A stretch of DNA of 64,000 nt from a virus. The stretch is taken from IMG/VR virus record IMGVR_UViG_3300027370_000003, positions 9,436 through 73,435 of that record; one strand, written 5' to 3'. The translations under genes and the position numbers were made by a program. Every line of letters begins with the position of its first letter. The stretch's first letter is position 1. Positions 1,880-47,035 of the stretch are shown piece after piece. Under the pieces are notes generated by a model, which did not search any database, was not told the origin of the DNA, and saw only the letters and a list, made by a program, of their open reading frames with translations.

Positions 1880-2209
1880 TCACGTCTCTGCTACTTCCCG
1901 CTCGAACTGTTCAAGCGCCTTCCGAATCGTTGGAAACCATCGGCCGCAAACGGCTTCGCAAATCGTCATTGCATTGCCGGCATCGTAGAAGCCGAACCGG
2001 GCTTTCCCTCGGCGCGCGCGGTCGACTTGATCGGTCAATGCCTTCAAAGTGCGACCAGCCTCCGCCGGCGTTTCCGCGCGGAGGTCGACGGCAATCGCTA
2101 GGAGCGCGTCGTAGGTCTCGGACTCCGGCGCGCGCTTCCCTCGGGCCCATCTGAGGTCATCGAGTAGCCGTTCGACGGCGGCGAGTTTCTGTCGCGTCGT
2201 AACCGTCAT
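1880..2209 (-). CDS. hypothetical protein
   Basis: MTVTTRQKLAAVERLL; ATGA coupling. Confidence 0.65.
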   Translation of the reverse strand: MTVTTRQKLAAVERLLDDLRWARGKRAPESETYDALLAIAVDLRAETPAEAGRTLKALTDQVDRARRGKARFGFYDAGNAMTICEAVCGRWFPTIRKALEQFEREVAET

Positions 2210-2463
2210 TGCCATGCCCACAATGCCGTTTGCGGCGGCGCATAGTTGCATTCGACCAGCAGAGACGCCTCGATGACTGCCGTCAGGCCGCGACCGTTGT
2301 TCGTGTCCCATTCGACGTTGTAAAGATGCCATTGCCGATTGAACAAGACGAACGGCTCCTTCGACTGGCATTGTGCCAAGGCAGATTCAACGAGAAGCGG
2401 ATCGAAGGTCTCGATCCTCATCACATTTTGTTGGTCGTATTTCCAACGTACAGTCATTATCAA
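2206..2463 (-). CDS. hypothetical protein
   Basis: ORF tiles operon with 4-nt overlaps. Confidence 0.55.
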   Translation of the reverse strand: MIMTVRWKYDQQNVMRIETFDPLLVESALAQCQSKEPFVLFNRQWHLYNVEWDTNNGRGLTAVIEASLLVECNYAPPQTALWAWQ

Positions 2464-2690
2464 ACCTCATCTGGCGCTGGCGGCAGTGGCGTCCAATGCG
2501 TGTGATAACCGGGCCATCCGCCAAAGTGTTGCGTATAGGTGTAATTTCGCACGCTATCTCTGATCGTTATTTCGACGGGGGTTCCTGCGTCGAGAGGTGA
2601 TCCGACATAGGGCGGTTCGGTGATGGGAAACGTCCACCAAAGAACTGGCCCCATCTCTTCGTGATACTCACTAAGCGGGCGAGCTGTCAT
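2460..2690 (-). CDS. hypothetical protein (DUF551-like C-terminal THWTPLP motif)
   Basis: MTARPLSEYHEE...HTHWTPLPPAP. Confidence 0.6.
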   Translation of the reverse strand: MTARPLSEYHEEMGPVLWWTFPITEPPYVGSPLDAGTPVEITIRDSVRNYTYTQHFGGWPGYHTHWTPLPPAPDEV

Positions 2691-3073
2691 GGCGGCGTCA
2701 CGCTCCCGTCGTTGCGGTAAATCATGCCAAGCTCCTGCTCGGTTGGCACCATGATCCCGCAATAGCCGCCGTCTGCCGAAGCGCGGCATTCGTTTGGCTG
2801 TATCGGATGTGTCGGGTCGGGATCAGGAATCATCATCCAACCGGAAGACGTCCAGCGCACGGCGCCGCGACTCCGAAGAGGCCGGGATTCTGCGCACCCG
2901 GCCATCAGCATCGACCCGCCGATGACGAGGTTGAAAACCCGGCGCGCGCCGTCGGAGCCGTCTCGCGGCTTGCAATCGTCCGGAGACGCGGACCAGACTG
3001 CTATCGCTATGAACGCACCGGCGAAGATGCCGAACGCGACGACGCCGAGCCATTCCTTCGTGATTTTGCTCAT
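2687..3073 (-). CDS. hypothetical membrane protein
   Basis: N-terminal hydrophobic helix; 4-nt overlaps on both sides. Confidence 0.55.
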   Translation of the reverse strand: MSKITKEWLGVVAFGIFAGAFIAIAVWSASPDDCKPRDGSDGARRVFNLVIGGSMLMAGCAESRPLRSRGAVRWTSSGWMMIPDPDPTHPIQPNECRASADGGYCGIMVPTEQELGMIYRNDGSVTPP

Positions 3074-3624
3074 CCCGATCTCCCTGCTTGTCGCTTCAGT
3101 TCGCCGCGCGGGACGCCGACCATGCGGTCCAAGAGCTCCAGAACGGCTTGCTTGGATGCCTGAAAATCATCTTTGCCCATTGCGGCGGCGGATTGTGATT
3201 TAGGCCGGCGCACGATGACCTTCATCCCGACGACTCTGATCCGCGCGTATTCGTTGTCGGTCCTAATCCAGCGCGCAAGCCGCTGCGCCTCCTTGGCAGA
3301 CTCGAAGTCGAACTCGTCCTCGTCGAACCATCCACATTCAATAAGGCACCACTTACGCAGATGTTCTGGCGTCGGCCAGCGGGCAGCAATCGATTCGGGA
3401 AGATTTTGAAACCCCTCATGGATGGCAGCAAAGAATTGCGAGTGACTAGCGCGCGAGCGCGGCTCAATAGGGACGAGAGGATATTCTTCAAGTTCGTGAT
3501 ATTGTCGCGCTGCAAGACTGGCGTGGTTATTGCGTGGCACCATCGCCATTCGACGGGTCGCTACGCCATCATCGTCAATGACGTCGACCTTTCTCCAAAT
3601 GCAAACTACGGGAAAAATTCTCAT
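3070..3624 (-). CDS. putative NinB/DUF1367-like recombination-associated protein
   Basis: RSRASHSQFFAAI...NLPE...PTPEHLRKWCLIECG motif and position beside exonuclease/Erf; family call tentative. Confidence 0.45.
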   Translation of the reverse strand: MRIFPVVCIWRKVDVIDDDGVATRRMAMVPRNNHASLAARQYHELEEYPLVPIEPRSRASHSQFFAAIHEGFQNLPESIAARWPTPEHLRKWCLIECGWFDEDEFDFESAKEAQRLARWIRTDNEYARIRVVGMKVIVRRPKSQSAAAMGKDDFQASKQAVLELLDRMVGVPRGELKRQAGRSG

Positions 3625-4169
3625 GACCTCGCAAACTCCCCGGCGAGGCGGATCGCTTCAGCCCGATAGGCTGCTGCGGCCTGTTCAGCGGTGTCGAAGG
3701 TCCCAACTTGCCGCCATTTGCGATTAAATTGAATAGTCGCGCGGTAGCGGCCGTTCGGTGTAAGGCTGACGCCCTTAAATCCAGATTGGCTATTTTTATT
3801 ACACCCTCTGTTCGCACAGTTCTGGATGGTTGTTGCCTGCCGAAGATTGCGCCATTTATTATTTTCGCCGTCAAGATCGCGATGGTCGACGGTATTGATA
3901 GGCCACTCGCCGGTCACGTACAGGATGGCAAGACGATGCTCGAAGAACGGGTAATCGAAAATGCGAATTACACGGTAGGTCATATCGCTCGGCTGAGCTT
4001 TCCAAACGCTTCCCGCTCGTCTTCCGGCATAACGAGTATTCCAGTTTGCGCGCGCCTCCGGCCGATAGCGCCAAATCCGCTCGCCGGTCTTTTTCGAGTA
4101 GCGAAGGAGCCGCTTTACTATCGCCTGATCGAGGAATGGTTCGCCGGAACCCTTTATCCATGTTCCCAT
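3621..4169 (-). CDS. HNH-AP2 homing endonuclease
   Basis: VDHRDLDGENNKWRNLR (HNH) followed by SGFKGV...YRATI...GTFDTAEQAAAAY...GEFA (AP2); start 4169 by TGATG overlap. Confidence 0.9.
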   Translation of the reverse strand: MGTWIKGSGEPFLDQAIVKRLLRYSKKTGERIWRYRPEARANWNTRYAGRRAGSVWKAQPSDMTYRVIRIFDYPFFEHRLAILYVTGEWPINTVDHRDLDGENNKWRNLRQATTIQNCANRGCNKNSQSGFKGVSLTPNGRYRATIQFNRKWRQVGTFDTAEQAAAAYRAEAIRLAGEFARS

Positions 4170-9059: not shown

Positions 9060-9437
9060 TTAGGCGGCCTCCTTCTTCGTCAATTTGTCGATGACTTCTT
9101 CCCACGAATCGCCTTCGGCCCTGATCGTAAAGAAGAGGCTGCTCGTCGTGCCGACCGTGATCTTATAATGGCGCGTTATAGACCCCAGCCGGTCCGTCTC
9201 CTTGTGGGCCAATTCATAAGCCGCGCACAGGCTTTGATATTCGGCGTCGGCCGCAAGGACCGCGCGGCATCGAGCATTCTTTTGTTCTTCCAGTTTTTTC
9301 CGTTCCTCGATCGCCGGAGTAAGCGAAGCCCGCGCGGCTTCGCGCTCTTCTCGTGTCGCGGCTTTGGGGTCCAAACGATAGCCTAACGACTTGCCGAGTA
9401 GCTTCCCAAGTTTCCTGATTGCGGCTGATCGTTCCAT
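9060..9437 (-). CDS. 125-aa hypothetical protein, first gene of left operon; paralogue of 19141-19518
   Basis: 96/125 identical residues with 19141-19518 by manual ungapped alignment; GGAGAG RBS. Confidence 0.85.
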   Translation of the reverse strand: MERSAAIRKLGKLLGKSLGYRLDPKAATREEREAARASLTPAIEERKKLEEQKNARCRAVLAADAEYQSLCAAYELAHKETDRLGSITRHYKITVGTTSSLFFTIRAEGDSWEEVIDKLTKKEAA

Positions 9438-31276: not shown

Positions 31277-32107
31277 ATGCCCAAGCCACAGACCTTTCAG
31301 GAAGTCCTAGCCGCTGCAATCGCGGACATCGCGGAATCGGGATATGACAGCGCAGAGCGTGTTGAAGGTTGGATGCGTAAACTACGCCTTGCCGCCGAAA
31401 CGTCGCTGATCTCCGCCGCCTCGCTCGAACAGCAACTCCGCGACGGCCTAGCCGCCATCTACCGCCGGATGGTCGATCAAGGCGGGGCGCTCCGCTACAA
31501 CCCCGGGATCGAGCGGTTCACGCTGGAGAAGCTCCGGCCGGCGCTGCGCGGGGAACTCGACCGCCGTATCCTGGCGTCCGCGAACCTCATCAAGCTCAAC
31601 CGGGCCCAGGCAATCGACAAGACCCTGCAACGGTTTCAGGGCTGGTCGACGTCGATCCCGAAGGGCGGCGTGTCGGGGGAGACGAAGGCCGAGGTTAAGG
31701 CCAATGTGCGAAAGTCGCTCGCGTCTTTGCCCTTCACCGAACGCCGACTTTTGACGGACCAGGGCCATAAACTTATCGCGTCGATAAACGACATAATCGC
31801 CGCTGACGGAGGTGCCATCGCTGGGCAATGGTCGAGCAGGTGGCGCCAAGCAGGATATGATTATCGGGAAGATCACAAAGAACGCGACGGAAAATTCTTT
31901 CTCATCCGCGATTGTTGGGCTCATGTGGCCGGCCTCGTCAAAAAGGGGAAGGCTGGCTACGTCGATGAAAGCACCGCTCCCGCTCAGGAGCCATTTTGCC
32001 GTTGCAGTTATAAATATGTGTACAATATCAGAGATTTACCTGATGACATGGTGACGGTAAAAGGCAAGAATGCGCTTCGAGAAGTTCGAGAGAAAATGAG
32101 CGCATGA
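31277..32107 (+). CDS. MuF/SPP1 gp7-like head morphogenesis protein
   Basis: IDKTLQRFQGW...DQGHKL...W...YREDHKERDG...PAQEPFCRC. Confidence 0.88.
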   Translation: MPKPQTFQEVLAAAIADIAESGYDSAERVEGWMRKLRLAAETSLISAASLEQQLRDGLAAIYRRMVDQGGALRYNPGIERFTLEKLRPALRGELDRRILASANLIKLNRAQAIDKTLQRFQGWSTSIPKGGVSGETKAEVKANVRKSLASLPFTERRLLTDQGHKLIASINDIIAADGGAIAGQWSSRWRQAGYDYREDHKERDGKFFLIRDCWAHVAGLVKKGKAGYVDESTAPAQEPFCRCSYKYVYNIRDLPDDMVTVKGKNALREVREKMSA

Positions 32108-32922
32108 CCGACCTCCTAATCCACTACATCTACGTGGCCTTCTATCCAAACGGCATCCCTTGCTATGTCGGGAAAGGGAAAGGGGGCCGGTGGCTGCATC
32201 ATCTCACGAAAAGTCATAACAAGCGGCTTGCCGGAGTTGTGAGAAAGGCAGGTGGCAGTATACCGATCATAAAACTCCGCGAAAACTTGACTGAGGCGGA
32301 AGCGTTTGAAATCGAGATTGCGCTTATTGCCGCGATTGGCCGTCGCGATCTGGGAACGGGGCCACTGCTTAATCTGACGGCCGGTGGGGATGGCGTTGTT
32401 GGACATCGACGAACGCCCGCGCAGCGCAAGCAAATGAGCGTATCTAGAAAGGGTATCGTCCCTACCAGGGAGACGGCGGCCAAGATCAGCGCCAAACTGA
32501 AAAACGTTCCGAAAACCCCGGCACATTGCGCCGCCGTCAGCGCGGCTAAAAAGAACGTTCCGCTCGGACCAATGAGCGCATTGCAACGAATGGCAATCGG
32601 CGATGGCCATCGGGGCAGAAAACGTTCGGCAGAGGAATGTGCATCGCTAAAGATAGCGGCTGAAAAACTACGAAATGATCCGGTTCGAAGCGCCCAAAAG
32701 AGTGCAAGAATCAGTGCTGCGCTCACCGGCCGAAAACTATCGCCTCAGACCTGCGCCAAGATCAGTGCCGTCCAGAAGAACAAGCCCAAGGGGCCGATGA
32801 AGGAAACGACGAAGCTGAAACTTCGAGTCGGCAGGATTATAAAACGCTGGTTCGCGGAGCAGCCGGTTTTCGTTTCCGAATATGCGAAGTGGGGAGACGG
32901 CGCGTCGGCCGGCTTGCTATGA
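32104..32922 (+). CDS. GIY-YIG homing endonuclease with NUMOD3-like repeats
   Basis: YIYV...CYVGKG...RW...EAFEIEIALI...GPLLNLTAGGDG. Confidence 0.88.
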   Translation: MTDLLIHYIYVAFYPNGIPCYVGKGKGGRWLHHLTKSHNKRLAGVVRKAGGSIPIIKLRENLTEAEAFEIEIALIAAIGRRDLGTGPLLNLTAGGDGVVGHRRTPAQRKQMSVSRKGIVPTRETAAKISAKLKNVPKTPAHCAAVSAAKKNVPLGPMSALQRMAIGDGHRGRKRSAEECASLKIAAEKLRNDPVRSAQKSARISAALTGRKLSPQTCAKISAVQKNKPKGPMKETTKLKLRVGRIIKRWFAEQPVFVSEYAKWGDGASAGLL

Positions 32923-36747: not shown

Positions 36748-37412
36748 ATGCCGCTCGAATCGGGTTCATCCCGCGAAACGATCAGCCACAACATCAAGGA
36801 AATGGTCGAAAGCGGCCACCCGCAAAGCCAAGCCGTTGCGGCCGCACTTTCAAAATCTCGCGGCGACACTATCCCCGCTGGCCTGAATACCGTCATCGAC
36901 GCGGTCTGCTCGATGTGCGACAGCATCGACAAGATGACCGCGCGGCTCGGGGCGCACTGCGATGACCGACGGGTGATTGGCGGTGTCGGGCACGGCGATG
37001 TCGAGAAAATAACGGCGGTGGACGAGTGGTCAGAAGAAGCCCGAGAAGCGGCCGCGCGTGCGAAAGGCAAAGGCGTCGCTGAACGGCTGGCGGCGAGAAA
37101 AAAGGAACGCGAAGCCGGGAGAGATCGGGACCTTACGAATCTGGGCAACGGACCGATGGCCTGGAGCGGGGTTAATAAAAAATGACCCGCGGCGAACGGT
37201 TTACCATCGGTCGTCAGCTCTGTCAGGATTTTCTGCGCGGCGACGCTGATATTGCGGCGCTCGGAGAAGGCAATCGCCGGAATCTTCATCAATGCCCGAA
37301 GTGTGAAGGCAATCGGGCATGGTACGACAACTGCCACGGCGACCATCACGACGGCGGCTGGGAGACGTGCCAGCCCGGTGCCTATGCTGACCCGCCGGAA
37401 GAAGACGAATGA
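36748..37412 (+). CDS. head-region small proteins (36748-37185, 37182-37412)
   Basis: [34 protein letters not shown] motif commonly found upstream of DUF2213 proteases. Confidence 0.65.
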
Positions 37413-39325
37413 AAGCCGCCGGAATCCTTTTCGTTTCGATGAACGGCAACGCGCTCTTCCTGCGCCGGACCGCGAGCGCACCCGATTGTGCGGCGTGCTG
37501 GGATTTCCCCGGCGGCGGCCAAGAAGGCGAAGAGACGGCCGAACAGACCGCCATCCGCGAGACCCGCGAGGAGATCGGCCACGTCCCTGACGGCATCCGA
37601 ATACTGCACACCCGAACCCGATCCGGCTCCGCGCTGCAAGGCGTGGCTGGTCCCGGCGCGTCGCCGCTTGGCAACCCTGTTGACGGCGGCGCGCCGACGG
37701 CCCCTTCGATCATTCCGGCGATGCCGGTCGATGTGGATTACACGACGTTCCTGCAAAAAGTGACGAACGAGTTTGTCCCGGAGCTCAACGACGAGCACGA
37801 CGGCTACGCCTGGTCGCCGATCACGGCGCCGCCCGAGCCGCTGCATCCGGGGTGTCGCATCGCGCTCGACCGTCTGTCGATGGACGAACTCGCCGTCGCG
37901 CGCGCCATTTCCGAAGGTCGGCTGACGTCGCCGCAACGCTACGAGAACGTCACTTTGTGGGCGATTCGCATCACCGGGACGGGCGCTTCGTATCGGCCGA
38001 AGGTCAACGAGTTCGTCTTTCGCGACCCTACCGACCACATCAATCCCGACGCACTGGCCCGCTGCAACGGCCTGCCGGTTATCTTCAAACACCCCGCCAA
38101 GGCGCTCCTGAACAGCGAGGAGTTTGCTAATCGTATTGTGGGGACCATTTTTTTGCCGTATGTTGCCGGCGATGAGGTCTGGGGCATCGCCAAAATCTAC
38201 GACGATGAAACCAACCGGCTTTTAGACGAGGAGAACCTTTCCACTTCCCCCGGCGTGAACTTCAAGGACTTCAAGGTCAATCGAAGTCTGCGCATGGAGG
38301 ACGGTTCGAAGGTTCTCATCGAAGGCAAACCGAGTCTCGTCGACCACGTCGCGATCTGCGAGTTGGGCGTCTGGGACAAGGGCGGCGACCCGAGCGGCAT
38401 TCGTTCCGAATCACGAGAGGACACAGCGATGGCTGACGAAGACGAGAAGGAAAAGAAAGCCAAGGAAGACGCCGCGAAGGCCGATGCAGCCAAAAAGGAT
38501 GCCGAAGAGGCCGAGAAGAAGGCCAAGGAAGACGCCGCCCGCAAGGACGCGGACGCCGGAAAGTCCCTCGACGAAAAGCTCTCCCACGTTCTTGACGCCG
38601 TCACCGGTTGCATGGACGCCGTGAAGCGGGTCGACGCCCGGATGGACGCGATGGACGAGGAGAAGAAAAAAGCCGACGCGGCCAAGAAGGACGAGTTCCC
38701 CGACAAAGAGGCCGAAAAGACCGCCGCCGATAAGGCGAAGAAGGACGCGGCCGACAAGGAGGAGGAGGAAAAAAAGAAGGCCGATGCCGCCAAGAAAGAC
38801 GAAGAGGACAAGGCGAAAACCGACTCCGCTGGGCTGGGTGATCGGATCGCCGCCGTCGAGCGCGCCGTCAAGGCGACCGACGCGAAGATCACCCCGATCC
38901 CGGACGACGACCATTCCCGCCTCGCCGACGCTTGGGCGATCGCGGACGACGCCTGCCGGGCGCTCGGCATGAACGGTCCCCGCGCCATGCCGGGCGAGAC
39001 CTCCGCGCAGTTCCGGCGCCGGGTGGTCAAGCTGCTCAAGCCGCACAGCGCGACCTGGAAGGACGTCGACATCGCCACGGCCGCCTACGCAGACGAAGCG
39101 ATGTTCGCCGTGGTCGAGAAACAGGTCCTCACCGATGCCGCGAGGGCCGCGCGCGACCCAGCCAACGTCGCCGGCGACAAGCTCCGGATGATCGAGCGCA
39201 AGAACGATGGCCACACGATCCGCGAGTTCGTGGGCCAGCCGAGGACTTGGATGAACGACTTTGCCGGGCCGATCCAACTACGGGGCGAAGGCAAGTTTCT
39301 TCACGAGAACCTCGGCAAGAACTGA
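37409..39325 (+). CDS. Nudix hydrolase - DUF2213 prohead protease - scaffold fusion
   Basis: Intact Nudix box GGQEGEETAEQTAIRETREEIG; AIRITGTG...STSPG...DHVAIC..GVWDKGG; D/K/A/E-rich scaffold repeats. Confidence 0.9.
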   Translation: MKAAGILFVSMNGNALFLRRTASAPDCAACWDFPGGGQEGEETAEQTAIRETREEIGHVPDGIRILHTRTRSGSALQGVAGPGASPLGNPVDGGAPTAPSIIPAMPVDVDYTTFLQKVTNEFVPELNDEHDGYAWSPITAPPEPLHPGCRIALDRLSMDELAVARAISEGRLTSPQRYENVTLWAIRITGTGASYRPKVNEFVFRDPTDHINPDALARCNGLPVIFKHPAKALLNSEEFANRIVGTIFLPYVAGDEVWGIAKIYDDETNRLLDEENLSTSPGVNFKDFKVNRSLRMEDGSKVLIEGKPSLVDHVAICELGVWDKGGDPSGIRSESREDTAMADEDEKEKKAKEDAAKADAAKKDAEEAEKKAKEDAARKDADAGKSLDEKLSHVLDAVTGCMDAVKRVDARMDAMDEEKKKADAAKKDEFPDKEAEKTAADKAKKDAADKEEEEKKKADAAKKDEEDKAKTDSAGLGDRIAAVERAVKATDAKITPIPDDDHSRLADAWAIADDACRALGMNGPRAMPGETSAQFRRRVVKLLKPHSATWKDVDIATAAYADEAMFAVVEKQVLTDAARAARDPANVAGDKLRMIERKNDGHTIREFVGQPRTWMNDFAGPIQLRGEGKFLHENLGKN

Positions 39326-39375
39326 CATCCGCTCAACAGGGTCCCGAAGGCTAGAGAACACTTTAGGAGAACCAG

Positions 39376-40278
39376 ATGGTCGCGTCCGTCACCTTCCAGC
39401 CCTACGTCCAGAGCGGCGGCAATACTGGGCTTTTCAACGTTCAGTCCAGCGGCTATCGGCAGGGCACGGCTATGCCCGATCCTTCCACGCGCTACCGCCT
39501 TCGCGGTGCGCTTCTGGCGACGACCGAAACGCTTCCGATGTGGGGCGGTGTCGGTGTCTATGCCAACGTCCCCGGCGGCGGCTATCCCGGCACTCAAGGC
39601 GTTCCTGGTTCCCCGAGCGGATCGCTCGGGCCCATCGTCGGCCGCGCGACGGCGCTGACGGGCACGTTCAAACTCGCCGGCTTCTCGGTCACCGACGAAG
39701 CCTATGGCATGATCACGTCGCCGCAGTCTCCGGTCCCCCTCGCGGGCTCCGGGATGCAGGTCAACTACTATCCGCTCGGTTCGCTGGCGCGTATCGTTGT
39801 TGCCTGCGACCCCGGCTTGGTTTCACTCCGCGGCGGCACGACCTACCAGCCGGCGGTCGCATGGGATTTCACGAACCAGCTTCTTGTCCCCGAACTCGGA
39901 ACGCTGGTGATCTCGTCCGGCACCTACGTCTCCGCCACCGGCGTGATCACGCTGACGATGGCGGTCGCTCCGACCTTCAGCCCCGGCGACTCGCTCACTC
40001 TTGCATCGCTCACCGGCACCGGCGCTTTTGCCACGCTCGACGGCACCTGGACGGTTCTGACCGTTGTCGGTTCCGTGGTCACTTTGCAGGGTCCGGTTGC
40101 TGCCGGCGCGGCGACCATCACCGGCGGCAACGCCACGGTCGGCGGCGTCGCAAGCGCAGCCCTTCCGGTCAATGTCCTCGACATCAACCCATCGAACTCG
40201 GAGACGGTCGTCTACAACGCGACGACGGGGTTTGCGACGTACAACTTTTCGGGGGCGTGTGCCCTTATCCAGATCTGA
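39376..40278 (+). CDS. capsid cement/decoration protein with inserted beta-module
   Basis: ETLPMWGGVG...PQSPVP...GSLARI...WDFTNQ; position before MCP. Confidence 0.8.
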   Translation: MVASVTFQPYVQSGGNTGLFNVQSSGYRQGTAMPDPSTRYRLRGALLATTETLPMWGGVGVYANVPGGGYPGTQGVPGSPSGSLGPIVGRATALTGTFKLAGFSVTDEAYGMITSPQSPVPLAGSGMQVNYYPLGSLARIVVACDPGLVSLRGGTTYQPAVAWDFTNQLLVPELGTLVISSGTYVSATGVITLTMAVAPTFSPGDSLTLASLTGTGAFATLDGTWTVLTVVGSVVTLQGPVAAGAATITGGNATVGGVASAALPVNVLDINPSNSETVVYNATTGFATYNFSGACALIQI

Positions 40279-40331
40279 TTCGGAAAACTGAAAACGCGAA
40301 AGTCTCGCGATCAAAACGAGGAGAATGAAAA

Positions 40332-41351
40332 GTGATCCAGGCCCACGCGTATGTCACATTGAACCCCTCGTTCATCGAGCCGGAGTTTCTCATCCAGTAC
40401 AGCCAAGCGTCGGGGTTCATCGACCTCCTCGCTGAAGGTCAGATGCGGGTTCGGCTCTCGGAGGACGATCTGATCGTCTACATGAAGCAGATGAACTTCC
40501 GGTCGAAGATAGCGGCCAATACCGCCGGCTCGCAGGAACTTCCGGGCGTCGACATCGCGACCTCGATGATCTCGGCTCCGACCTATCTGCTTCAGGTCCG
40601 CAACCAGTACAATCACCACGACGTCGCCGCCGGCTCCCGGTGGGGCTTCGCGGTGCCGGAGGCCTACCGTCTCGGTGGCCGGCAAGCGAACTACCAGCTC
40701 GCCCGCGACGCTTGCCTTTTCGGCATGAACCCGCAGAACGGCGAAGGTATTATCAACGCGCCGGGCGCGACCGCCATCAACCTGCCGCCGGACACGTTTG
40801 GTAACTCGACGGTCGTGACCTACGACAACGGGCAGTTTGCCTTCCTGATTGCGCAGCTCGTTTTGAATATCAAGTCGCGGACCTACCAGCTTGGTCTCGG
40901 CAAGAAGATCACGATCCTTGGGCCGCAGCGTACGCTCGGCTTGTTCGAGTACAACATCGTCCAGCTTGTCCAGTATCAGCGCCCGGGCGCCGGCACGACG
41001 TCGACCGCCGGAACCATCAAGGAAATCTTGATGGCGAACGGCGACACACTGATCTGGGCCTACGACGATACGCTGATCGGCGCCGGCGCTGGCGGGACGG
41101 ACGCGATCATCATCTGTATGCCCGAGGTCGACAAGCCGAAGGGCGACCAGCCGGTCAACACGAACATCTTCGCCAGCCTGCTTCCCGGCTCGAAGGTTTG
41201 CCTGACGCAATATTGCGACATGGCAGCCCCGCGTGAGATCGTATCGCCGATGGCCGGCGGCGCGACGGACTTCCTGCAGGAATGGAGAATAAGTTCAGGC
41301 TGGGCAGTACGTTCGGCTGCGCTCACGATTTTGAGTGCCCAGTACCAATAA
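40332..41351 (+). CDS. major capsid protein (DUF2184-like)
   Basis: 339 aa, position after protease/cement; IQYSQASG...AAPREI...SSGWAVR. Confidence 0.85.
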   Translation: MIQAHAYVTLNPSFIEPEFLIQYSQASGFIDLLAEGQMRVRLSEDDLIVYMKQMNFRSKIAANTAGSQELPGVDIATSMISAPTYLLQVRNQYNHHDVAAGSRWGFAVPEAYRLGGRQANYQLARDACLFGMNPQNGEGIINAPGATAINLPPDTFGNSTVVTYDNGQFAFLIAQLVLNIKSRTYQLGLGKKITILGPQRTLGLFEYNIVQLVQYQRPGAGTTSTAGTIKEILMANGDTLIWAYDDTLIGAGAGGTDAIIICMPEVDKPKGDQPVNTNIFASLLPGSKVCLTQYCDMAAPREIVSPMAGGATDFLQEWRISSGWAVRSAALTILSAQYQ

Positions 41352-41375
41352 ACCCCGCCGCAAACTAAAGCCGGA

Positions 41376-41408
41376 GGGGAGTGGGCGATTCTAGATAGCC
41401 CACTCCCC
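41376..41408 (+). other. 11-bp perfect hairpin after MCP (mRNA stabiliser or partial terminator)
   Basis: GGGGAGTGGGC-N11-GCCCACTCCCC with no immediate U-tract. Confidence 0.65.
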
Positions 41409-41453
41409 CGAGGCGTGCAGGGGTCGCTTTTTCAACAGGGAAACGAAAACACC

Positions 41454-42035
41454 ATGGCGAAGCTGTACATTTCGAACGTCTCGCGGCAAGAGCAGATCGT
41501 TTGCTATCGGCTGGACTACGGCAAAGACGGCGAGCTGAAAGACACCAATCGCCGATTTGAGCCCGCGAAGCAGCAGCCGATTCCGCCTGGTCGACAGGTC
41601 ATGATCGGCGGCGACATGCACATGCGCCAGATCGAGGACATCGTCGAGCAACTCAAGCCCTATGGCCTGATTGGCGCGCTTGATGCGCCGCGGCAGCACA
41701 GAGTTGCGACGCTGGTATTCAATATCGTCAACCCGGTCCCGACGAAGGTGATGGAAAGCGTCCGTGATACAAACGCGGAGCTGCAAACCGCTGAAGGCAT
41801 TGAACGTCGCAAGAAGGCTGCTGTAGCGACGAATGAGATGGTCCAAAGCGCGGTTGCAAGCCAATTCCTCGAAAAGGGAATCCCGGACGAGCCGGCCGAC
41901 AAGACGATCATCACATTCGAGCAGCAGGAACAGAGCGACGCCGGGGAGAAGACCATCGCGGAGGGCTACCGCGTCGAGGCCGGCGCCGCCGCCCCGCCGA
42001 AGAACAAGGGCGGCCGTCCGCGCAAGATTCGGTGA
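41454..42035 (+). CDS. head-associated structural protein
   Basis: Position after MCP; CAACAGGGAA before ATG. Confidence 0.6.
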   Translation: MAKLYISNVSRQEQIVCYRLDYGKDGELKDTNRRFEPAKQQPIPPGRQVMIGGDMHMRQIEDIVEQLKPYGLIGALDAPRQHRVATLVFNIVNPVPTKVMESVRDTNAELQTAEGIERRKKAAVATNEMVQSAVASQFLEKGIPDEPADKTIITFEQQEQSDAGEKTIAEGYRVEAGAAAPPKNKGGRPRKIR

Positions 42036-42038
42036 GCG

Positions 42039-42581
42039 ATGACGGCCCCGCAGCCGACGCTCGCTGGTTTTCAGGATTTCATCGTCAACACGATGCAGAT
42101 CAGCACGACGGTCCTACCGTCGAGCTCGCCGGTCATCCCGTTTGCGCTTTCCGTTGCGATGGGAATCGTTAACCAGCAGCTATGGTGCATCCCTATCCCG
42201 AACACCGATGCGGCGGGCGTCCAACTTAATACTGGCGGGTTTTCGATCTACTCGCTGGCGGTCTACAATCTCGCAGGATCGAACCTGCTGTCCTACGCGC
42301 AAGACCTACCGAACGCGGCTATCATCCCTGGTAGTGTGAGCGACCGATACCCGAAGGGGCTTCCGTTCTTCGCCTATTCTCGGCTGCAATGGCAGATCAA
42401 CGCCTTTGTCTCAGGCGTTGTTCAATCGACGGCCGACGAATCGACTTCGATGTCGCTGGTCGTCCAAGATGCGGCGAAGAACTTTACCCTTGCCAACCTT
42501 CAAGCCTTGAAAGACCCGTGGGGTCGGCAGTACCTTTCGCTGGCCCAAAGTTACGGACCATCGACGTTCGGCATCAGTTAA
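42039..42581 (+). CDS. head-tail adaptor (DUF4054-like)
   Basis: YSLAVYNLAG..L..YAQD...STADESTS...LKDPWGRQYL. Confidence 0.8.
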   Translation: MTAPQPTLAGFQDFIVNTMQISTTVLPSSSPVIPFALSVAMGIVNQQLWCIPIPNTDAAGVQLNTGGFSIYSLAVYNLAGSNLLSYAQDLPNAAIIPGSVSDRYPKGLPFFAYSRLQWQINAFVSGVVQSTADESTSMSLVVQDAAKNFTLANLQALKDPWGRQYLSLAQSYGPSTFGIS

Positions 42582-42590
42582 GGAACCGCT

Positions 42591-42881
42591 ATGACCGCGA
42601 CATCATTCGGCAGCGCCGGACTCGTCAATACGCAGCTCAACATCAACCAGCCGATGGTCCTAAAGACCTCGGCAGGAGGGGTTCTAACGGTGAACGTCAC
42701 GGTCGCTGGGTCGACCGCTGGCGCCATCTATGACTCGCCAACCACAGGCGGAAACGGGACCGGCAGTCTCATCGCGACGCTGCCGAATACGGTTGGTCCG
42801 ATTAACATCTCGTTCCCCTGCCAGACCGGCATTACGGTCGTCCCGGGCTCGGGGCAATGCGTTTCTGTCGTCTACCAATAG
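42591..42881 (+). CDS. small beta-rich virion protein, paralogue of 48243-48542
   Basis: LNINQP...IYDS...GI...PG.GQ..SVVY shared. Confidence 0.7.
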   Translation: MTATSFGSAGLVNTQLNINQPMVLKTSAGGVLTVNVTVAGSTAGAIYDSPTTGGNGTGSLIATLPNTVGPINISFPCQTGITVVPGSGQCVSVVYQ

Positions 42882-42891
42882 GCGGGTAGCG

Positions 42892-42936
42892 ATGCCCATA
42901 CTTCACCTCGGAGTAATTGACCGAATCGCGCTATAA
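42892..42936 (+). pseudogene. orphaned original N-terminus (MPILHLGVID) of the 43750 gene
   Basis: Encodes LHLGV.D like 43750 MILHLGVQD, separated from it by the GIY-YIG gene. Confidence 0.7.
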
Positions 42937-42943
42937 TTGGCCT

Positions 42944-43753
42944 ATGGGGCTGATTTATTACGGCTATCTGCACGCGCGTCCAGACGGCTCAATCTTTTAT
43001 GTCGGAAAGGGCAAAGGGCGCCGTGCTTGGGACTTCTCCCCCAAGCACCGTTCACCGCGCCATCGCGAGATCATGCGCGAATATGGGGTCTCGACTATCC
43101 AAGTCAGTCTAATTTACGCTGAAACGGAAACTGAAGCGTTCGCTATTGAGCGGGAGTGGATCTCATCGCTTCAGAGAGCTGGTATTCGGCTCATAAATCT
43201 AACTGAGGGCGGAGAAGGAGTTCCTTTGACGCCAGAGATGATTAAACAGCGTGCTGCTACTCTAAGAGCAACCAATTTGTTACCAGAGGTAAAGCGGCGG
43301 CGCAGCAAAACGATAAGCCTCAGGTATCAGGACCCGGAATACAAAGAGCGGTTTGACGTTCTCATGGCAACCGTTGCACGTCGCCCTGATGTTTTGCCAA
43401 AAAAGCAAGCGGCTATTGAACGTGTTCGTGCTGACCCGGAAATTGAGACGCGTCGAATTAAATCAATGAAATTGGCATTCAGTAAGCCGGAATATAGAGA
43501 ACTAAAACGCCAGATCTCCCTTAAAGGTGGCAATAGACCGCCGACCTATCATGGAGGTGATCATCCAATGGCGAAAAAAGTGATCTGCATCGAAACGGGA
43601 ACGATCTTTCCGACTGTGAGGGCCGCGATAGCGTGGTTGAAGGCAAACGGGTCATCGCGCAAAGCGGAGCCATGTGCTATTGTCGCAGCCTGCCGTGGCC
43701 GTCAAAAATCGGCTTATAAATTTCATTGGAAATATGTGAAGCCCGTCAAATGA
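42944..43753 (+). CDS. GIY-YIG homing endonuclease with NUMOD1-like C-terminus
   Basis: YYGYLH...FYVGKGKGRRA...EAFAIERE...NLTEGGEG; AKKVICIETGTIF. Confidence 0.9.
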   Translation: MGLIYYGYLHARPDGSIFYVGKGKGRRAWDFSPKHRSPRHREIMREYGVSTIQVSLIYAETETEAFAIEREWISSLQRAGIRLINLTEGGEGVPLTPEMIKQRAATLRATNLLPEVKRRRSKTISLRYQDPEYKERFDVLMATVARRPDVLPKKQAAIERVRADPEIETRRIKSMKLAFSKPEYRELKRQISLKGGNRPPTYHGGDHPMAKKVICIETGTIFPTVRAAIAWLKANGSSRKAEPCAIVAACRGRQKSAYKFHWKYVKPVK

Positions 43754-44256
43754 TTTTGCATTTAGGTGTCCAGGACATTTTGTACCAACCTCCGCAGCCG
43801 ACGGGACCACAGCGCAAGGCTCCGAAGCGCGTCCCGAAGAAGCCGCGCGCGAAGATTCATAAGCGGTGGGCGGCGAAGTATCAGAACATCACGACGGGCG
43901 ACGTCGCGGAAATCCTCGAAGCGAAGTACCACATCTTCGAGATTTTCTACCGCGAACACGAGCAGGACGTGGCGAACGACGTGACCGACTCGATGCGAGG
44001 CGCGGTCGAAAGCTATCTCATGGGCGCGCCGCTGAACCTCAACCCGTTCGGCTCGGCGACGTCGTCGATTGAAAATCGGATGAAGCAGTTCTTGGCGAAC
44101 AGCGAGATGGAGAAGATCGGTTTCCCCGGCGTGCCGACGCAGGCCGCGATCGAAGGGATCAGCCACCGTTTCAAAAACCCGCGGACCGGCGTCCGGCGCC
44201 CGAGTTTCGTGGACACTGGATTATATTTGGCTAGTATGACCGCATGGGTCGATTAG
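43750..44256 (+). CDS. tail-completion/neck protein
   Basis: LHLGV...TTGDVAEILEAKY...PTQAA..G...RPSFVDTGLY. Confidence 0.75.
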   Translation: MILHLGVQDILYQPPQPTGPQRKAPKRVPKKPRAKIHKRWAAKYQNITTGDVAEILEAKYHIFEIFYREHEQDVANDVTDSMRGAVESYLMGAPLNLNPFGSATSSIENRMKQFLANSEMEKIGFPGVPTQAAIEGISHRFKNPRTGVRRPSFVDTGLYLASMTAWVD

Positions 44257-44891
44257 CCTACGTCTACATCGTCTTTCGGCCGAATGGCGTCCCGCTTTAT
44301 GTCGGCAAAGGCTCTGGCGAACGTCTAGGCCGCCACGCTGCGCGTGCGCAATCAAACCCGCACTATGGCGCAGTTCTGAAACAAGCTGGTGGAAAGTTGC
44401 CCGTCGCTGTCGTCGCTCGTGGGTTAACAGACCGCGAAGCCTATGCGCTCGAAAAACTTCTCACATGGGCTATTGGCATCGAATCGGAAGGTGGACCACT
44501 CGTGAACTGCGGCCACGGGGGCCATGGAGGGCCGTCCGGTGTTAAGAGATCGAAGGAGTTTCGCGCTAATCGACGAGTCAAGGCGATCGAGGCGTGGCAA
44601 GACGAAACGTTTCGGGCGAAGATGCTTCGGCCAGATCGCCTCCGGTACCGAAACACGAGCCCCAGATCGGAAGCATTCAAGGCCGCCGTATCCAAAACGA
44701 TGATGGGGAATACTCATACGCTCGGGTTTAATCATTCCGAGGAATCGAAAGCTTTGATGAGGGAGAGGTGGGCTGATCCGGAATGGAGAGAGCGTGAGAT
44801 GGAGCGCCGTCGGTTAGAGCAGGACTATTCGGGAAATGCCAAAAAGGGTTGGGTAACGCGAAAAGCAAATATCGCCAAGAGGAACGCATAA
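44244..44891 (+). CDS. GIY-YIG homing endonuclease
   Basis: YVYIVFRPNGVPLYVGKG...EAYALEK...GPLVN..HGG; NUMOD3-like tail. Confidence 0.88.
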   Translation: MGRLAYVYIVFRPNGVPLYVGKGSGERLGRHAARAQSNPHYGAVLKQAGGKLPVAVVARGLTDREAYALEKLLTWAIGIESEGGPLVNCGHGGHGGPSGVKRSKEFRANRRVKAIEAWQDETFRAKMLRPDRLRYRNTSPRSEAFKAAVSKTMMGNTHTLGFNHSEESKALMRERWADPEWREREMERRRLEQDYSGNAKKGWVTRKANIAKRNA

Positions 44892-45922
44892 TGGCCGGCG
44901 CACAGGAAGCCCTCACCGCGAAGAACCCTATGGCGGCCGACTTGGCTGCTGGCGTCGAGGCCTTATCGCGCGTCCAAGAAATCACGTTCACCAAATATAT
45001 CCGTCTTGTTCTTCCCCTCGATGGCTACGTTTTCTTTGTGAATGCTGCAATCGTCAGCCGGTCCGCACTCGCCAACTCGGCCCTCGTTAACAAGGTGCGG
45101 CCGGACCAATTTCCCGAGACGGTAGCCGACGCTCCGACGTTCAACGCCAAGGGCTCGCTGCACTACGCGACGGACCTGCGCCAGGAGGCCGGGGAATATT
45201 ACGGCGCCGAACGCATGGTCTTCACGGCCGAGGAGCCGGTGAACGATCTCTCGGCCATCGCGCCGGGCACGCTCTGGATTGGCGAGTTTGAAGGCAAACG
45301 TTTCGCGTTCTCGAGCCGGTCGTCATTCTACATGCAAGCCGATCTTTTCCATTACGTCGGATTTGCAGTTTATCCCGATATGGAGACGCAGATCATCGAC
45401 AATCTGTCGGGCTTCGACTCAACGAACGTTATCGTCTCGAACAGCCTCCCGGCGTGGCTGGCGCTCAACGGCCGCAACCCGGTCTACGGGTTCAATACGC
45501 TCGGGGTCACGCTCTTCCCGTCTTTCCTCTCCCCGCAGAACGAGCCGCCGCCGTTCGGAACGGTCGACATTCCGCCGGAGTCGACCGAGGCGCTGGCATC
45601 GGCACCGACGATTGACCCGGCAACCTCGACGCACGTCCAGCTTTGCGCGGAAACGGTCAAGATCACGCTGTGGGGAACGCGCAATTTCAGGGCGCTCGAT
45701 TTTGTCGATGCCGTCTATCAGTACAGTTCCGACTTTGAGCCGTTCGGAATTATGAACATGCCGGTGGTGCAGGACGAAAAACGGACGCAAGCCGAACTCG
45801 GGACCATTGCGATGAAGAAGTCCGTGACTTTCAAGGTGAGTTATTTACAGAACCGCATAAACGACATCGCGCGGCAGTACATCACCAGCGCAATCCCGAG
45901 TTTTTACATCGGGTCGTCCTAA
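44891..45922 (+). CDS. neck/tail structural protein
   Basis: Position before sheath; LPLDGYVFFV...GSLHY...FAFS conserved pattern. Confidence 0.7.
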   Translation: MAGAQEALTAKNPMAADLAAGVEALSRVQEITFTKYIRLVLPLDGYVFFVNAAIVSRSALANSALVNKVRPDQFPETVADAPTFNAKGSLHYATDLRQEAGEYYGAERMVFTAEEPVNDLSAIAPGTLWIGEFEGKRFAFSSRSSFYMQADLFHYVGFAVYPDMETQIIDNLSGFDSTNVIVSNSLPAWLALNGRNPVYGFNTLGVTLFPSFLSPQNEPPPFGTVDIPPESTEALASAPTIDPATSTHVQLCAETVKITLWGTRNFRALDFVDAVYQYSSDFEPFGIMNMPVVQDEKRTQAELGTIAMKKSVTFKVSYLQNRINDIARQYITSAIPSFYIGSS

Positions 45923-45939
45923 CGTCTTTTGTAAAGTGA

Positions 45940-46016
45940 TGGTGCCAGCGGCACGGATTCGAACCTGCGACCTGAGCCTTACAAGGACCCTGCTCTACCA
46001 TCTGAGCTACGCCGGC
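45940..46016 (-). tRNA. tRNA-Thr(UGU)
   Basis: Cloverleaf GCCGGCGTAGCTCAGATGGTAGAGC...CTTGTAA...GTTCGAATCC...GGCACCA; CCA encoded. Confidence 0.95.
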
Positions 46017-46028
46017 GTATTGTGGTTT

Positions 46029-46106
46029 TGGTCTGGGCGGCCGGATTTGAACCAGCGACCTCCTGATTCCAAGTCAGGCACTCTAACCAAGCTGAGCTAC
46101 GCCCAG
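46029..46106 (-). tRNA. tRNA-Pro(UGG)
   Basis: CTGGGCGTAGCTCAGCTTGGTTAGAG...CTTGGAA...GTTCAAATCC...CAGACCA. Confidence 0.95.
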
Positions 46107-46145
46107 ATGCGCCCTACCGCGCTGGCGTCGTCGGTGTAGGGTAGC

Positions 46146-46219
46146 TGGCGGCCCTGCATGGATTTGAACCACGATCTCGGCGTTCAAAGCGCCGCGTCCT
46201 GCCGTTGAACGACAGGGCC
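46146..46219 (-). tRNA. tRNA-Gln(UUG)
   Basis: GGCCCTGTCGTTCAACGGCAGGAC...CTTTGAA...GTTCAAATCC...GGCCGCCA. Confidence 0.93.
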
Positions 46220-46321
46220 GCGCTTCGTTGCTGGTCGGTGGCGATCATGGTGCGGGCCGGATAGCACCTATCCTTGAACGTAGCAACCGCCCACGGTATT
46301 GTGGCCGAAGGGGTTGCCGTC

Positions 46322-47035
46322 ATGGACATCGCTGATCCGACGAACGTCGTCGCGCCCGCCTATCTCGGGGCAATGTGGTTCGATGCCGCTTCGAACGTGT
46401 TCTACCAGGCGCGCGGGCTCACCGCGGCGGACTGGCGGTTCGTCCCGCCGGCGGACATGGTCGGGTCGTTCGTCAAGATTTACGACCAGTTCTACGGCAT
46501 CCCCGAAGACGACCCCAAGAACGCCGATGCCGCGACCAGATACGGCGATGCCAAACTGGTCCGGGACACGATGGCGCTGTCCGGCGTCGAGGTCCTCGGG
46601 CTCGGCGGTCTTCGCTGGCGCGCGGCAAACGGGACCGATGTTTTCATGGTCCGGCTGCGGTTCCGCAAGGTCAACGGATTCATGCTGTTCGCCGGCTTTG
46701 CCAAGGAGGCGCGGGCCTACGCGATGCCGGAGGGCGTCGGGTTCGAGATGTCGAATGGGTTCTTGCGGTTTGCCAGCAATAGTCGGGAAGTCTATCCAGG
46801 GGAGATCGTCGTGTTGCGCATTGAAGCGGAGCATTGGGCCGCTAAGGCGTTTGTCAATGATGATCCGCTCGGTGAGATTTCGATCGAATCATTGCCGCCG
46901 ACTCCGGTCGTCGCACTCCTCGACATCGGCCCGGGCCCGCGGCCGGTGGCGCCGGGATACGAGCACGCGCTCAAGCGGAATGTGGAGCGATTACCAGTTT
47001 CGGTGGTCAATGTCGGCGCACCGCTGAAAGCCTGA
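46322..47035 (+). CDS. hypothetical protein
   Basis: P.YLGAMWFD...Y.A.G...DW N-terminal motif seen in tail-associated proteins; start uncertain (ORF opens at 46274). Confidence 0.6.
   Translation: MDIADPTNVVAPAYLGAMWFDAASNVFYQARGLTAADWRFVPPADMVGSFVKIYDQFYGIPEDDPKNADAATRYGDAKLVRDTMALSGVEVLGLGGLRWRAANGTDVFMVRLRFRKVNGFMLFAGFAKEARAYAMPEGVGFEMSNGFLRFASNSREVYPGEIVVLRIEAEHWAAKAFVNDDPLGEISIESLPPTPVVALLDIGPGPRPVAPGYEHALKRNVERLPVSVVNVGAPLKA

Follow-up and report, generated by a model that had tools for sequence, protein, structure and literature searches.

Layout of the Locus

The 64,000-nt stretch of viral DNA analyzed here (hereafter the window) spans positions 9436 to 73435 of the 74,160-bp viral record IMGVR_UViG_3300027370_000003, which CheckV classed as complete. 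It carries a GIY-YIG endonuclease gene, HEG1, that lies inside the coding sequence of a conserved phage gene (the target gene) and appears to bring with it a replacement for the gene start that it displaced. The target gene, the nuclease genes on either side of it, the next structural gene, and the sequence features within and around them are all on the plus strand. Read from 5' to 3', the locus begins with the native ribosome-binding region of the target gene (42874..42891), which is nearly identical in the closest relative free of nuclease (locus L002) and sits upstream of an orphan start. From that start run the orphaned native codons 1-10 of the target gene (42892..42921), matched by L002 and by homologues P0002-P0006, and BLAST homology to L002 ends at 42921. 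These codons open a 14-codon stub open reading frame (ORF; 42892..42936), composed of 10 native-type codons and then four codons and a TAA (42934-42936) from the putative cassette, with the same length and stop in a second genome (locus L013). The 5' leader of the cassette (42922..42943), within which lie a TATAAT hexamer and the stub stop, resembles L013 and shows no similarity to L002. Seven nucleotides separate the stub TAA from the ATG of HEG1 (42944..43753), a gene of 269 aa with its ATG at 42944 and its TGA at 43753.

A second ATG, at 43750, shares the sequence ATGA with the HEG1 stop and begins the full 168-aa working target gene (43750..44256), a member of phrog_6560. Codons 1-9 of this working copy (43750..43776) are spelled differently from the orphan and are cassette-borne, judging from their identity to L002 versus L013 and a 12-base spelling common to L013. 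The original prediction, made from the letters of the window alone, had described a 10-codon start running into a stop, a nuclease gene, an ATGA overlap, and a full gene, and the ORFs and coordinates bear this layout out; all five LHLGV codons do differ between the two copies, whose longest common run of bases is 3 nt. As read from these alignments, a 0.87-kb cassette (42922 to about 43790) sits in the target coding sequence directly after codon 10, its parts being a conserved leader, the HEG1 gene, and a differently spelled target start codon with codons 2-9.

Evidence for a Proposed Start-Replacing Cassette

The closest relative is a 73.5-kb viral contig (loci L002/L008) with about 85% DNA identity to the window genome-wide and a target protein that is 87% identical in amino acids. 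It has neither HEG1 nor the second nuclease gene, HEG2; its target gene is contiguous, and the next gene starts one base after it. BLAST aligned window positions 37410-42921 with L002 516-6024 and 43774-44195 with L002 6022-6443, that is, homology stops at the last base of codon 10 (42921) and restarts at codon 10 of the downstream copy (43774). The left flank is 92-98% identical to L002 up to the junction and the orphan codons match the native L002 start at 26 of 30 nucleotides (87%) and all 10 amino acids, compared with about 55% identity over the first 46 nt past HEG1. It had been anticipated that endonuclease-free relatives would encode a contiguous MPILHLGVID-I-x-Y. The L002 gene and the five closest homologues (P0002-P0006) agree, the latter with the ten stub residues followed without interruption by I/V/L-x-Y. 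Conversely, no nuclease-free relative holding both copies, the observation named beforehand as grounds for rejecting the proposal, was found in 44-46 distinct alleles, and among about 70 target-gene loci the motif is present twice in the two HEG1-family genomes only. The HEG1 cassette is absent from L002/L001 and present in the window and L013. Such presence and absence between close relatives, with diverged flanks, is a feature of free-standing homing elements that HEG1 shares. The usual position of such elements between genes is found for HEG2 but not for HEG1, the left junction of which falls after codon 10. Taken together, the comparisons indicate that the orphan start is native to the window lineage, while the working start is foreign and linked to the nuclease.

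Pairing nuclease-free alleles from different phages gave 946 comparisons, of which 11.6% likewise differ at all five LHLGV codons; by itself, this difference would show only that the copies diverge as much as alleles taken from unrelated phages do. More informative is how the working copy is spelled. Its codons 1-9 are 52% identical to L002 at the nucleotide level (22% at third positions) and 70% identical to the nuclease-linked copy in L013 (56% at third positions). Both nuclease-linked copies encode H-L-G-V with the same 12 bases, CATTTAGGTGTC, a spelling found in 0 of 44 distinct nuclease-free alleles, among which its TTA codon occurs once and its GGT codon four times. Because of this common 12-base spelling and the higher identity to L013 (70% vs 52%), the replacement start is seen to travel with the nuclease.

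The second genome, IMGVR_UViG_3300044714_000074 (locus L013), encodes a HEG1 homologue (P0124, 50% amino acid identity) directly upstream of a target homologue (also 50%). Its stub begins with an ATG at 2155 and runs for 14 codons to a TAA, followed by a 7-nt spacer and P0124 at 2207-3004, the end of which overlaps the target start at 3001 as GTGA. The gene upstream of the cassette is unrelated in the two genomes (703 aa in L013 vs 96 aa in the window). The cassette leader of the window (42922-42943) nevertheless matches L013 2185-2206 at 17 of 22 bases, including 14 of the first 16, despite a nuclease identity of just 50%; since this 22-base leader is alike in both, the point at which similarity passes from the relative to the cassette is exactly the end of codon 10. 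The same architecture is thus present in a second, distant, and independently assembled genome. Its matching geometry and the common re-spelling favor the earlier proposal that the element itself brings the replacement start.

Further searches returned little beyond this genome. A nuclease search of viral contigs gave no further instance of the arrangement, and a nuclease profile run against viral, metagenome, and genome contigs recovered just the L013 contig and distant paralogues. Using a 20-base pattern for the left junction, the L013 contig and one chance match within a primase-like ORF (L215) were retrieved and no other, and the right-junction pattern retrieved the L013 contig only. The 14-base leader pattern had over 119 chance matches.

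The Endonuclease and the Gene That It Occupies

HEG1 was assigned to the PHROGs family phrog_314, 'homing endonuclease', at 3e-13. Searches of Pfam gave no significant family for HEG1, HEG2, or the target protein, with weak hits at most, and in a sequence-profile search of the PDB with HEG1 the best GIY-YIG entry reached E ~0.3. Where sequence profiles stayed weak, structure comparison settled the fold. In the AlphaFold2 model of HEG1 (pLDDT 88.8, built on 22 homologues), residues 3-89 best matched the I-TevI catalytic domain (1ln0_B; Z 9.2, root-mean-square deviation (rmsd) 2.4 Å, 83/94 residues), followed by PD-T4-3 (Z 8.6), UvrC (Z 7.4), and T4 EndoII (Z 6.3). A predicted helical linker (residues 97-194) leads to a C-terminal region in which, on the same predicted model, residues 187-268 resemble the part of I-HmuI that binds DNA (Z 7.8), with a further match between residues 205-266 and the I-TevI DNA-binding domain (1i3j; Z 5.8, rmsd 2.0). 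Among the 22 homologues, E69, N85, and G21 never vary, and conservation reaches 90% or more at Y8, Y19, and R27; the five close homologues agree without exception at R27, E69, and N85, three residues that we take to be the counterparts of I-TevI R27/E75/N90. Given the fold matches, the C-terminal DNA-binding matches, and the conserved catalytic-type residues, namely the two tyrosines of GIY/YIG plus Arg, Glu, and Asn, the model points to an intact, I-TevI-like two-domain GIY-YIG enzyme. The GC content of HEG1 is 0.46-0.55, compared with 0.56-0.65 in the flanks. Elsewhere in the window, a third GIY-YIG-type paralogue (32104-32922, 272 aa) is 39% identical to HEG1 over the catalytic domain, and its ATG overlaps the stop of an upstream 276-aa gene, again as ATGA.

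The target protein (168 aa) has 352 homologues in a large protein collection. In annotated phages a homologue, gp10 of Pantoea phage PdC23, is encoded between the major capsid/decoration genes and the tail genes; GenBank phages gave distant homologues only, with the N-terminal part missing from the alignment. From this context the target is assigned as a conserved gene of the phage head-tail module (neck region). Its position and conservation make it plausible that the gene is structural and essential. Among 38 sequences the N-terminal motif is the best-conserved part of the protein (L3 and G6 invariant; H4, L5, V7, and D9 at least 90%), and it is modeled as a confident beta-strand. It is because this motif is invariant or nearly so, and confidently folded as a strand, that an element displacing it would need to provide a replacement start. 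The model of the whole protein is mediocre (pLDDT 67); Foldseek returned no match, and VIA comparisons reached Z ≤5.0, with portal and adaptor chains mixed among unrelated helical proteins, and an adaptor identity was not adopted.

Expression Signals and a Proposed Mechanism

Predicted pairing with the anti-Shine-Dalgarno (anti-SD) sequence is concentrated at the orphan start. There it amounts to -6.8 kcal/mol in the window, with the same value in L002, and to -6.9 in L013, compared with -1.5 (window) and -2.2 kcal/mol (L013) at the nuclease ATG and -0.2 (no SD) and -2.9 kcal/mol, respectively, at the new target start. A sigma-70 scan found no promoter at the cassette, and the TATAAT in the leader was not retained as one, as it has no suitably spaced -35. 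This distribution of SD sequences, and the fact that stub length, stop, and 7-nt gap are all conserved, suggest a relay in which translation stops and restarts: ribosomes would read the stub, restart 7 nt on at the nuclease, and restart again at the ATGA on the target gene. With an SD kept at the orphan start only, loss or silencing of a cassette working in this way would starve the host gene too, and so the relay, if true, may tie expression of the host gene to retention of the parasite.

We consider it probable that, as a whole, the locus is best explained by a mobile HEG1 cassette within the target gene that combines homing, a replacement start, and such a relay. In a mixed infection, HEG1 would cleave alleles that lack a nuclease, within or close to the conserved LHLGV(I/V)D codons, and repair would copy the cassette with the orphan codons and upstream DNA as left arm and the gene body as right arm. 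An invaded allele would no longer be a target, the native left half-site now standing before cassette DNA and the native right half-site behind re-spelled codons. With the codons re-spelled, there would also be no direct repeat left through which the cassette could be excised precisely. The scheme predicts a recognition site in the conserved LHLGV(I/V)D codons around the junction of codons 10 and 11, and makes the locus a candidate natural example of synonymous re-spelling as self-immunity. A bolder version, to which we would give slightly less than an even chance, is that it represents a general third route by which phage homing endonucleases enter coding sequences besides introns and inteins: a start-replacing cassette that leaves the orphan start as a leader ORF and imposes an obligatory relay from stub to nuclease to gene, so that removing the parasite silences the gene, with re-spelling serving both as immunity and against excision.

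Several points weigh against the proposed cassette. The architecture is seen in two genomes only, and three further HEG1 homologues, P0122 (68% amino acid identity), P0123 (encoded on a 79-kb ENA contig), and P0125, lie outside the locus comparison. The five-codon difference, not rare among unrelated alleles (11.6%), is weak taken alone. The L013 stub also has TTA-GGT, and an 8-nt run is common to this stub and the L013 working copy; the re-spelling is hence not uniformly thorough, and either gene conversion took place or the cassette may have arisen in the L013 lineage. Both genomes keep an in-frame TTG, located 27 nt ahead of the nuclease ATG and following GGAG/GGTG, that could be the true nuclease start and would then weaken the restart model. 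That the target gene is essential is an assumption, and cleavage, homing, and expression are predictions from sequence for a phage with an uncultured host.

Part of this evidence would also suit a fossil of one ancient, imprecise insertion, in which illegitimate recombination duplicated the gene start by chance and vertical descent then carried a cassette that is immobile now. Between the two genomes, nuclease and target have drifted apart to a similar extent (about 50% identity each), as co-divergence would produce, just two instances were found, and TTA-GGT in both the stub and the working copy of L013 is as expected of an old in-situ duplication. Such a history is difficult to reconcile with a closest relative (about 85% DNA identity) that is without the cassette and has a seamless gene, and the window stub, 87% identical to the start of that relative, is far too well kept for a neutral 30-nt relic older than a 50% divergence in protein. 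The window and L013 have different upstream genes, the GC content of the cassette is foreign, and the nuclease is intact with its catalytic residues conserved. We therefore regard descent from a single inert insertion as improbable.

An endonuclease-bearing self-splicing intron is far less probable still. Were 42922-43776 spliced out, codon 10 would be joined to codon 10/11 and the second start would be irrelevant; the orphan codons are indeed placed such that splicing to 43777 would recreate a native-type protein, and I-TevI-type GIY-YIG nucleases are classic cases of intron-encoded enzymes (PMC2988022). However, Rfam searches of both strands of 42500-46400 matched no group I or group II intron model at E≤1 and returned three tRNAs only, the stub ORF runs into a stop, and in both genomes the downstream gene has a complete N-terminus and its own start overlapping the nuclease stop, which would be superfluous for an intron. 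The lack of an Rfam intron match and the separate start of the downstream gene support the description of the insertion as intron-less in the original prediction. Least likely of all, and only barely credible, is an ordinary intergenic free-standing endonuclease beside a stub that is due to chance or to an assembly artefact. Free-standing seg/mob genes do normally lie between genes and ride on host transcripts (PMC2988022), and HEG2 in the window is of that ordinary kind. Yet the stub reproduces the N-terminus of the relatives at 10/10 amino acids and 26/30 bases and occurs in no nuclease-free locus, the same proteins were found on three contigs, and the independent L013 assembly has matching geometry. 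A mobile, start-replacing HEG1 cassette accordingly stays the preferred explanation of the locus.

HEG2 and Neighboring Features

The second GIY-YIG-type endonuclease gene, HEG2 (44244..44891, 215 aa; phrog_314 at 7e-7, with a hint of NUMOD3), begins inside the final four target codons and ends with a stop that shares one base with the ATG (44891) of the next structural gene. The latter (44891..45922, phrog_6359) forms the right flank of HEG2 and is 88.6% identical to L002 from its ATG onward. A HEG2 homologue (59% amino acid identity) occupies the same site in another phage locus, L009, and is absent from L002; weaker relatives are found at the same intergenic site in L011, L052, and L080. 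Upstream of HEG2, the 3' end of the target gene (44156..44256) is re-spelled, being 52-63% identical to L002, and from its identity to L002 versus L009 it is read as a co-conversion tract. Codons 150-159 are 90% identical to L009 versus 50% to L002, and codons 70-129 are 80-100% identical to L002. Because identity shifts by codon block from an L002-like core to an L009-like end, the target gene is a three-part mosaic, in which the HEG1 cassette supplied the start, the core is native, and the end came with HEG2. HEG2 itself is an ordinary free-standing element, whose co-conversion exchanged the 3' end with no orphan left behind. One small gene is thus assembled from three sources, with each conserved terminus occupied by a different nuclease.

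The two ends of the target protein, short beta-strands at residues 3-7 and 163-167, are its best-conserved and most confidently modeled parts, and the corresponding DNA (43750-43770 and 44236-44253) is exactly where both nucleases sit. This fits nucleases choosing the least mutable DNA. The junction of the target and the next gene is a GIY-YIG hot spot in several distant phages (L009, L011, L052, and L080, at about 3430-4050), and GIY-YIG genes also lie one gene further downstream or upstream in L003/L071 (8401/5401) and L035/L036 (1338). In L013, a gap of about 370 nt between the target and the next gene, where the window has HEG2, contains an ORF of 117 aa (3478-3831), which was not nuclease-like by tblastn. 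Beyond the next structural gene, the window encodes three minus-strand tRNAs: Thr-TGT (45940-46016), Pro-TGG (46029-46106), and Gln-TTG (46146-46219). They lie in a segment of about 380 bp (45913-46293) between two structural genes, where L002 has about 33 bp, suggesting that near relatives differ by the gain or loss of a small tRNA cassette.

Relation to Known Mobile Elements

To our knowledge, homing endonucleases are usually held to enter essential coding sequences only within introns or inteins, or by splitting the protein. HEG1 would avoid both hiding and protein splitting by means of a replacement gene start, a geometry kept in two independent genomes. For annotation, such an element would explain orphan mini-ORFs and locally odd codon usage at the ends of genes that lie beside nuclease genes. 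Integrating elements have a comparable habit. The element e14 and phage 21 in icd, and elements that integrate into tRNA genes, restore the gene that they enter with their own diverged copy of the displaced end. The likeness lies in insertion within a gene and its restoration from a copy carried by the element; the difference is that those elements use site-specific integrases and replace 3' ends, whereas here nuclease-driven gene conversion would replace a 5' end.

Among homing endonucleases, insertions that split a gene are known for mobE in nrdA of Aeromonas phage Aeh1, mobA in T4 gene 39/60, and a seg gene in gene 43 of phage 25 (PMC2988022, PMC3045599). As at the HEG1 locus, a free-standing nuclease gene there interrupts coding sequence of functional importance and is not housed in an intron or intein. 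Those insertions, however, duplicate nothing, and the halves reassemble as proteins, whereas here a 10-residue piece would be discarded and replaced, so that the protein stays in one piece. The T4-type free-standing seg and mob nucleases more generally lie between genes as promoter-less cassettes and spread by intronless homing with co-conversion of the flanks (PMC2988022, PMC2790892, PMC2330249). HEG1 resembles them in its I-TevI-like two-domain GIY-YIG architecture, its presence or absence among related phages, and its diverged flanking tracts. Neither HEG1 nor the seg/mob genes have a promoter or SD of their own, and both would consequently depend on the expression signals of the host gene. 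HEG2 fits this type fully. HEG1 differs from it in lying within a coding sequence, for which it would compensate with the replacement start.

The closest parallel comes from fungal mitochondria, in which mobile endonuclease ORFs (mORFs) insert into atp6, atp9, cox2, and nad3, bringing a foreign C-terminus and leaving the native C-terminus alongside (PMC3630166). Cases include atp6 of Allomyces macrogynus, atp6, atp9, cox2, and nad3 of Glomus sp., atp9 of Rhizopus oryzae, and cox2 of Mortierella verticillata (PMC3630166 and studies cited there). In both systems an endonuclease ORF lies within a protein gene with no intron, a foreign and diverged gene end keeps the gene whole, and the native end is left as an orphan beside the element. 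The native end is also nearer to the closest relative (91-98% for mORFs, 87% here) than is the inserted copy (64-81% for mORFs, 52% here). The systems differ in host, an organelle for mORFs versus a tailed phage here, and in the end affected: mORFs duplicate the C-terminus, while at the HEG1 locus the N-terminus is duplicated, which obliges the element to bring a start codon and provide for translation initiation as well. Moreover, a mORF is often in frame with its gene, whereas HEG1 is a separate ORF in another frame, coupled to the target through ATGA, and the orphan piece is kept as a 14-codon leader ORF that is predicted to be translated. A full-text literature search of incomplete coverage, and hence no proof of absence, returned neither an N-terminal version nor any such hybrid described for phages. 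The comparison supports viewing the putative HEG1 cassette as a GIY-YIG counterpart, phage-borne and N-terminal, of the mitochondrial mORF gene hybrid.

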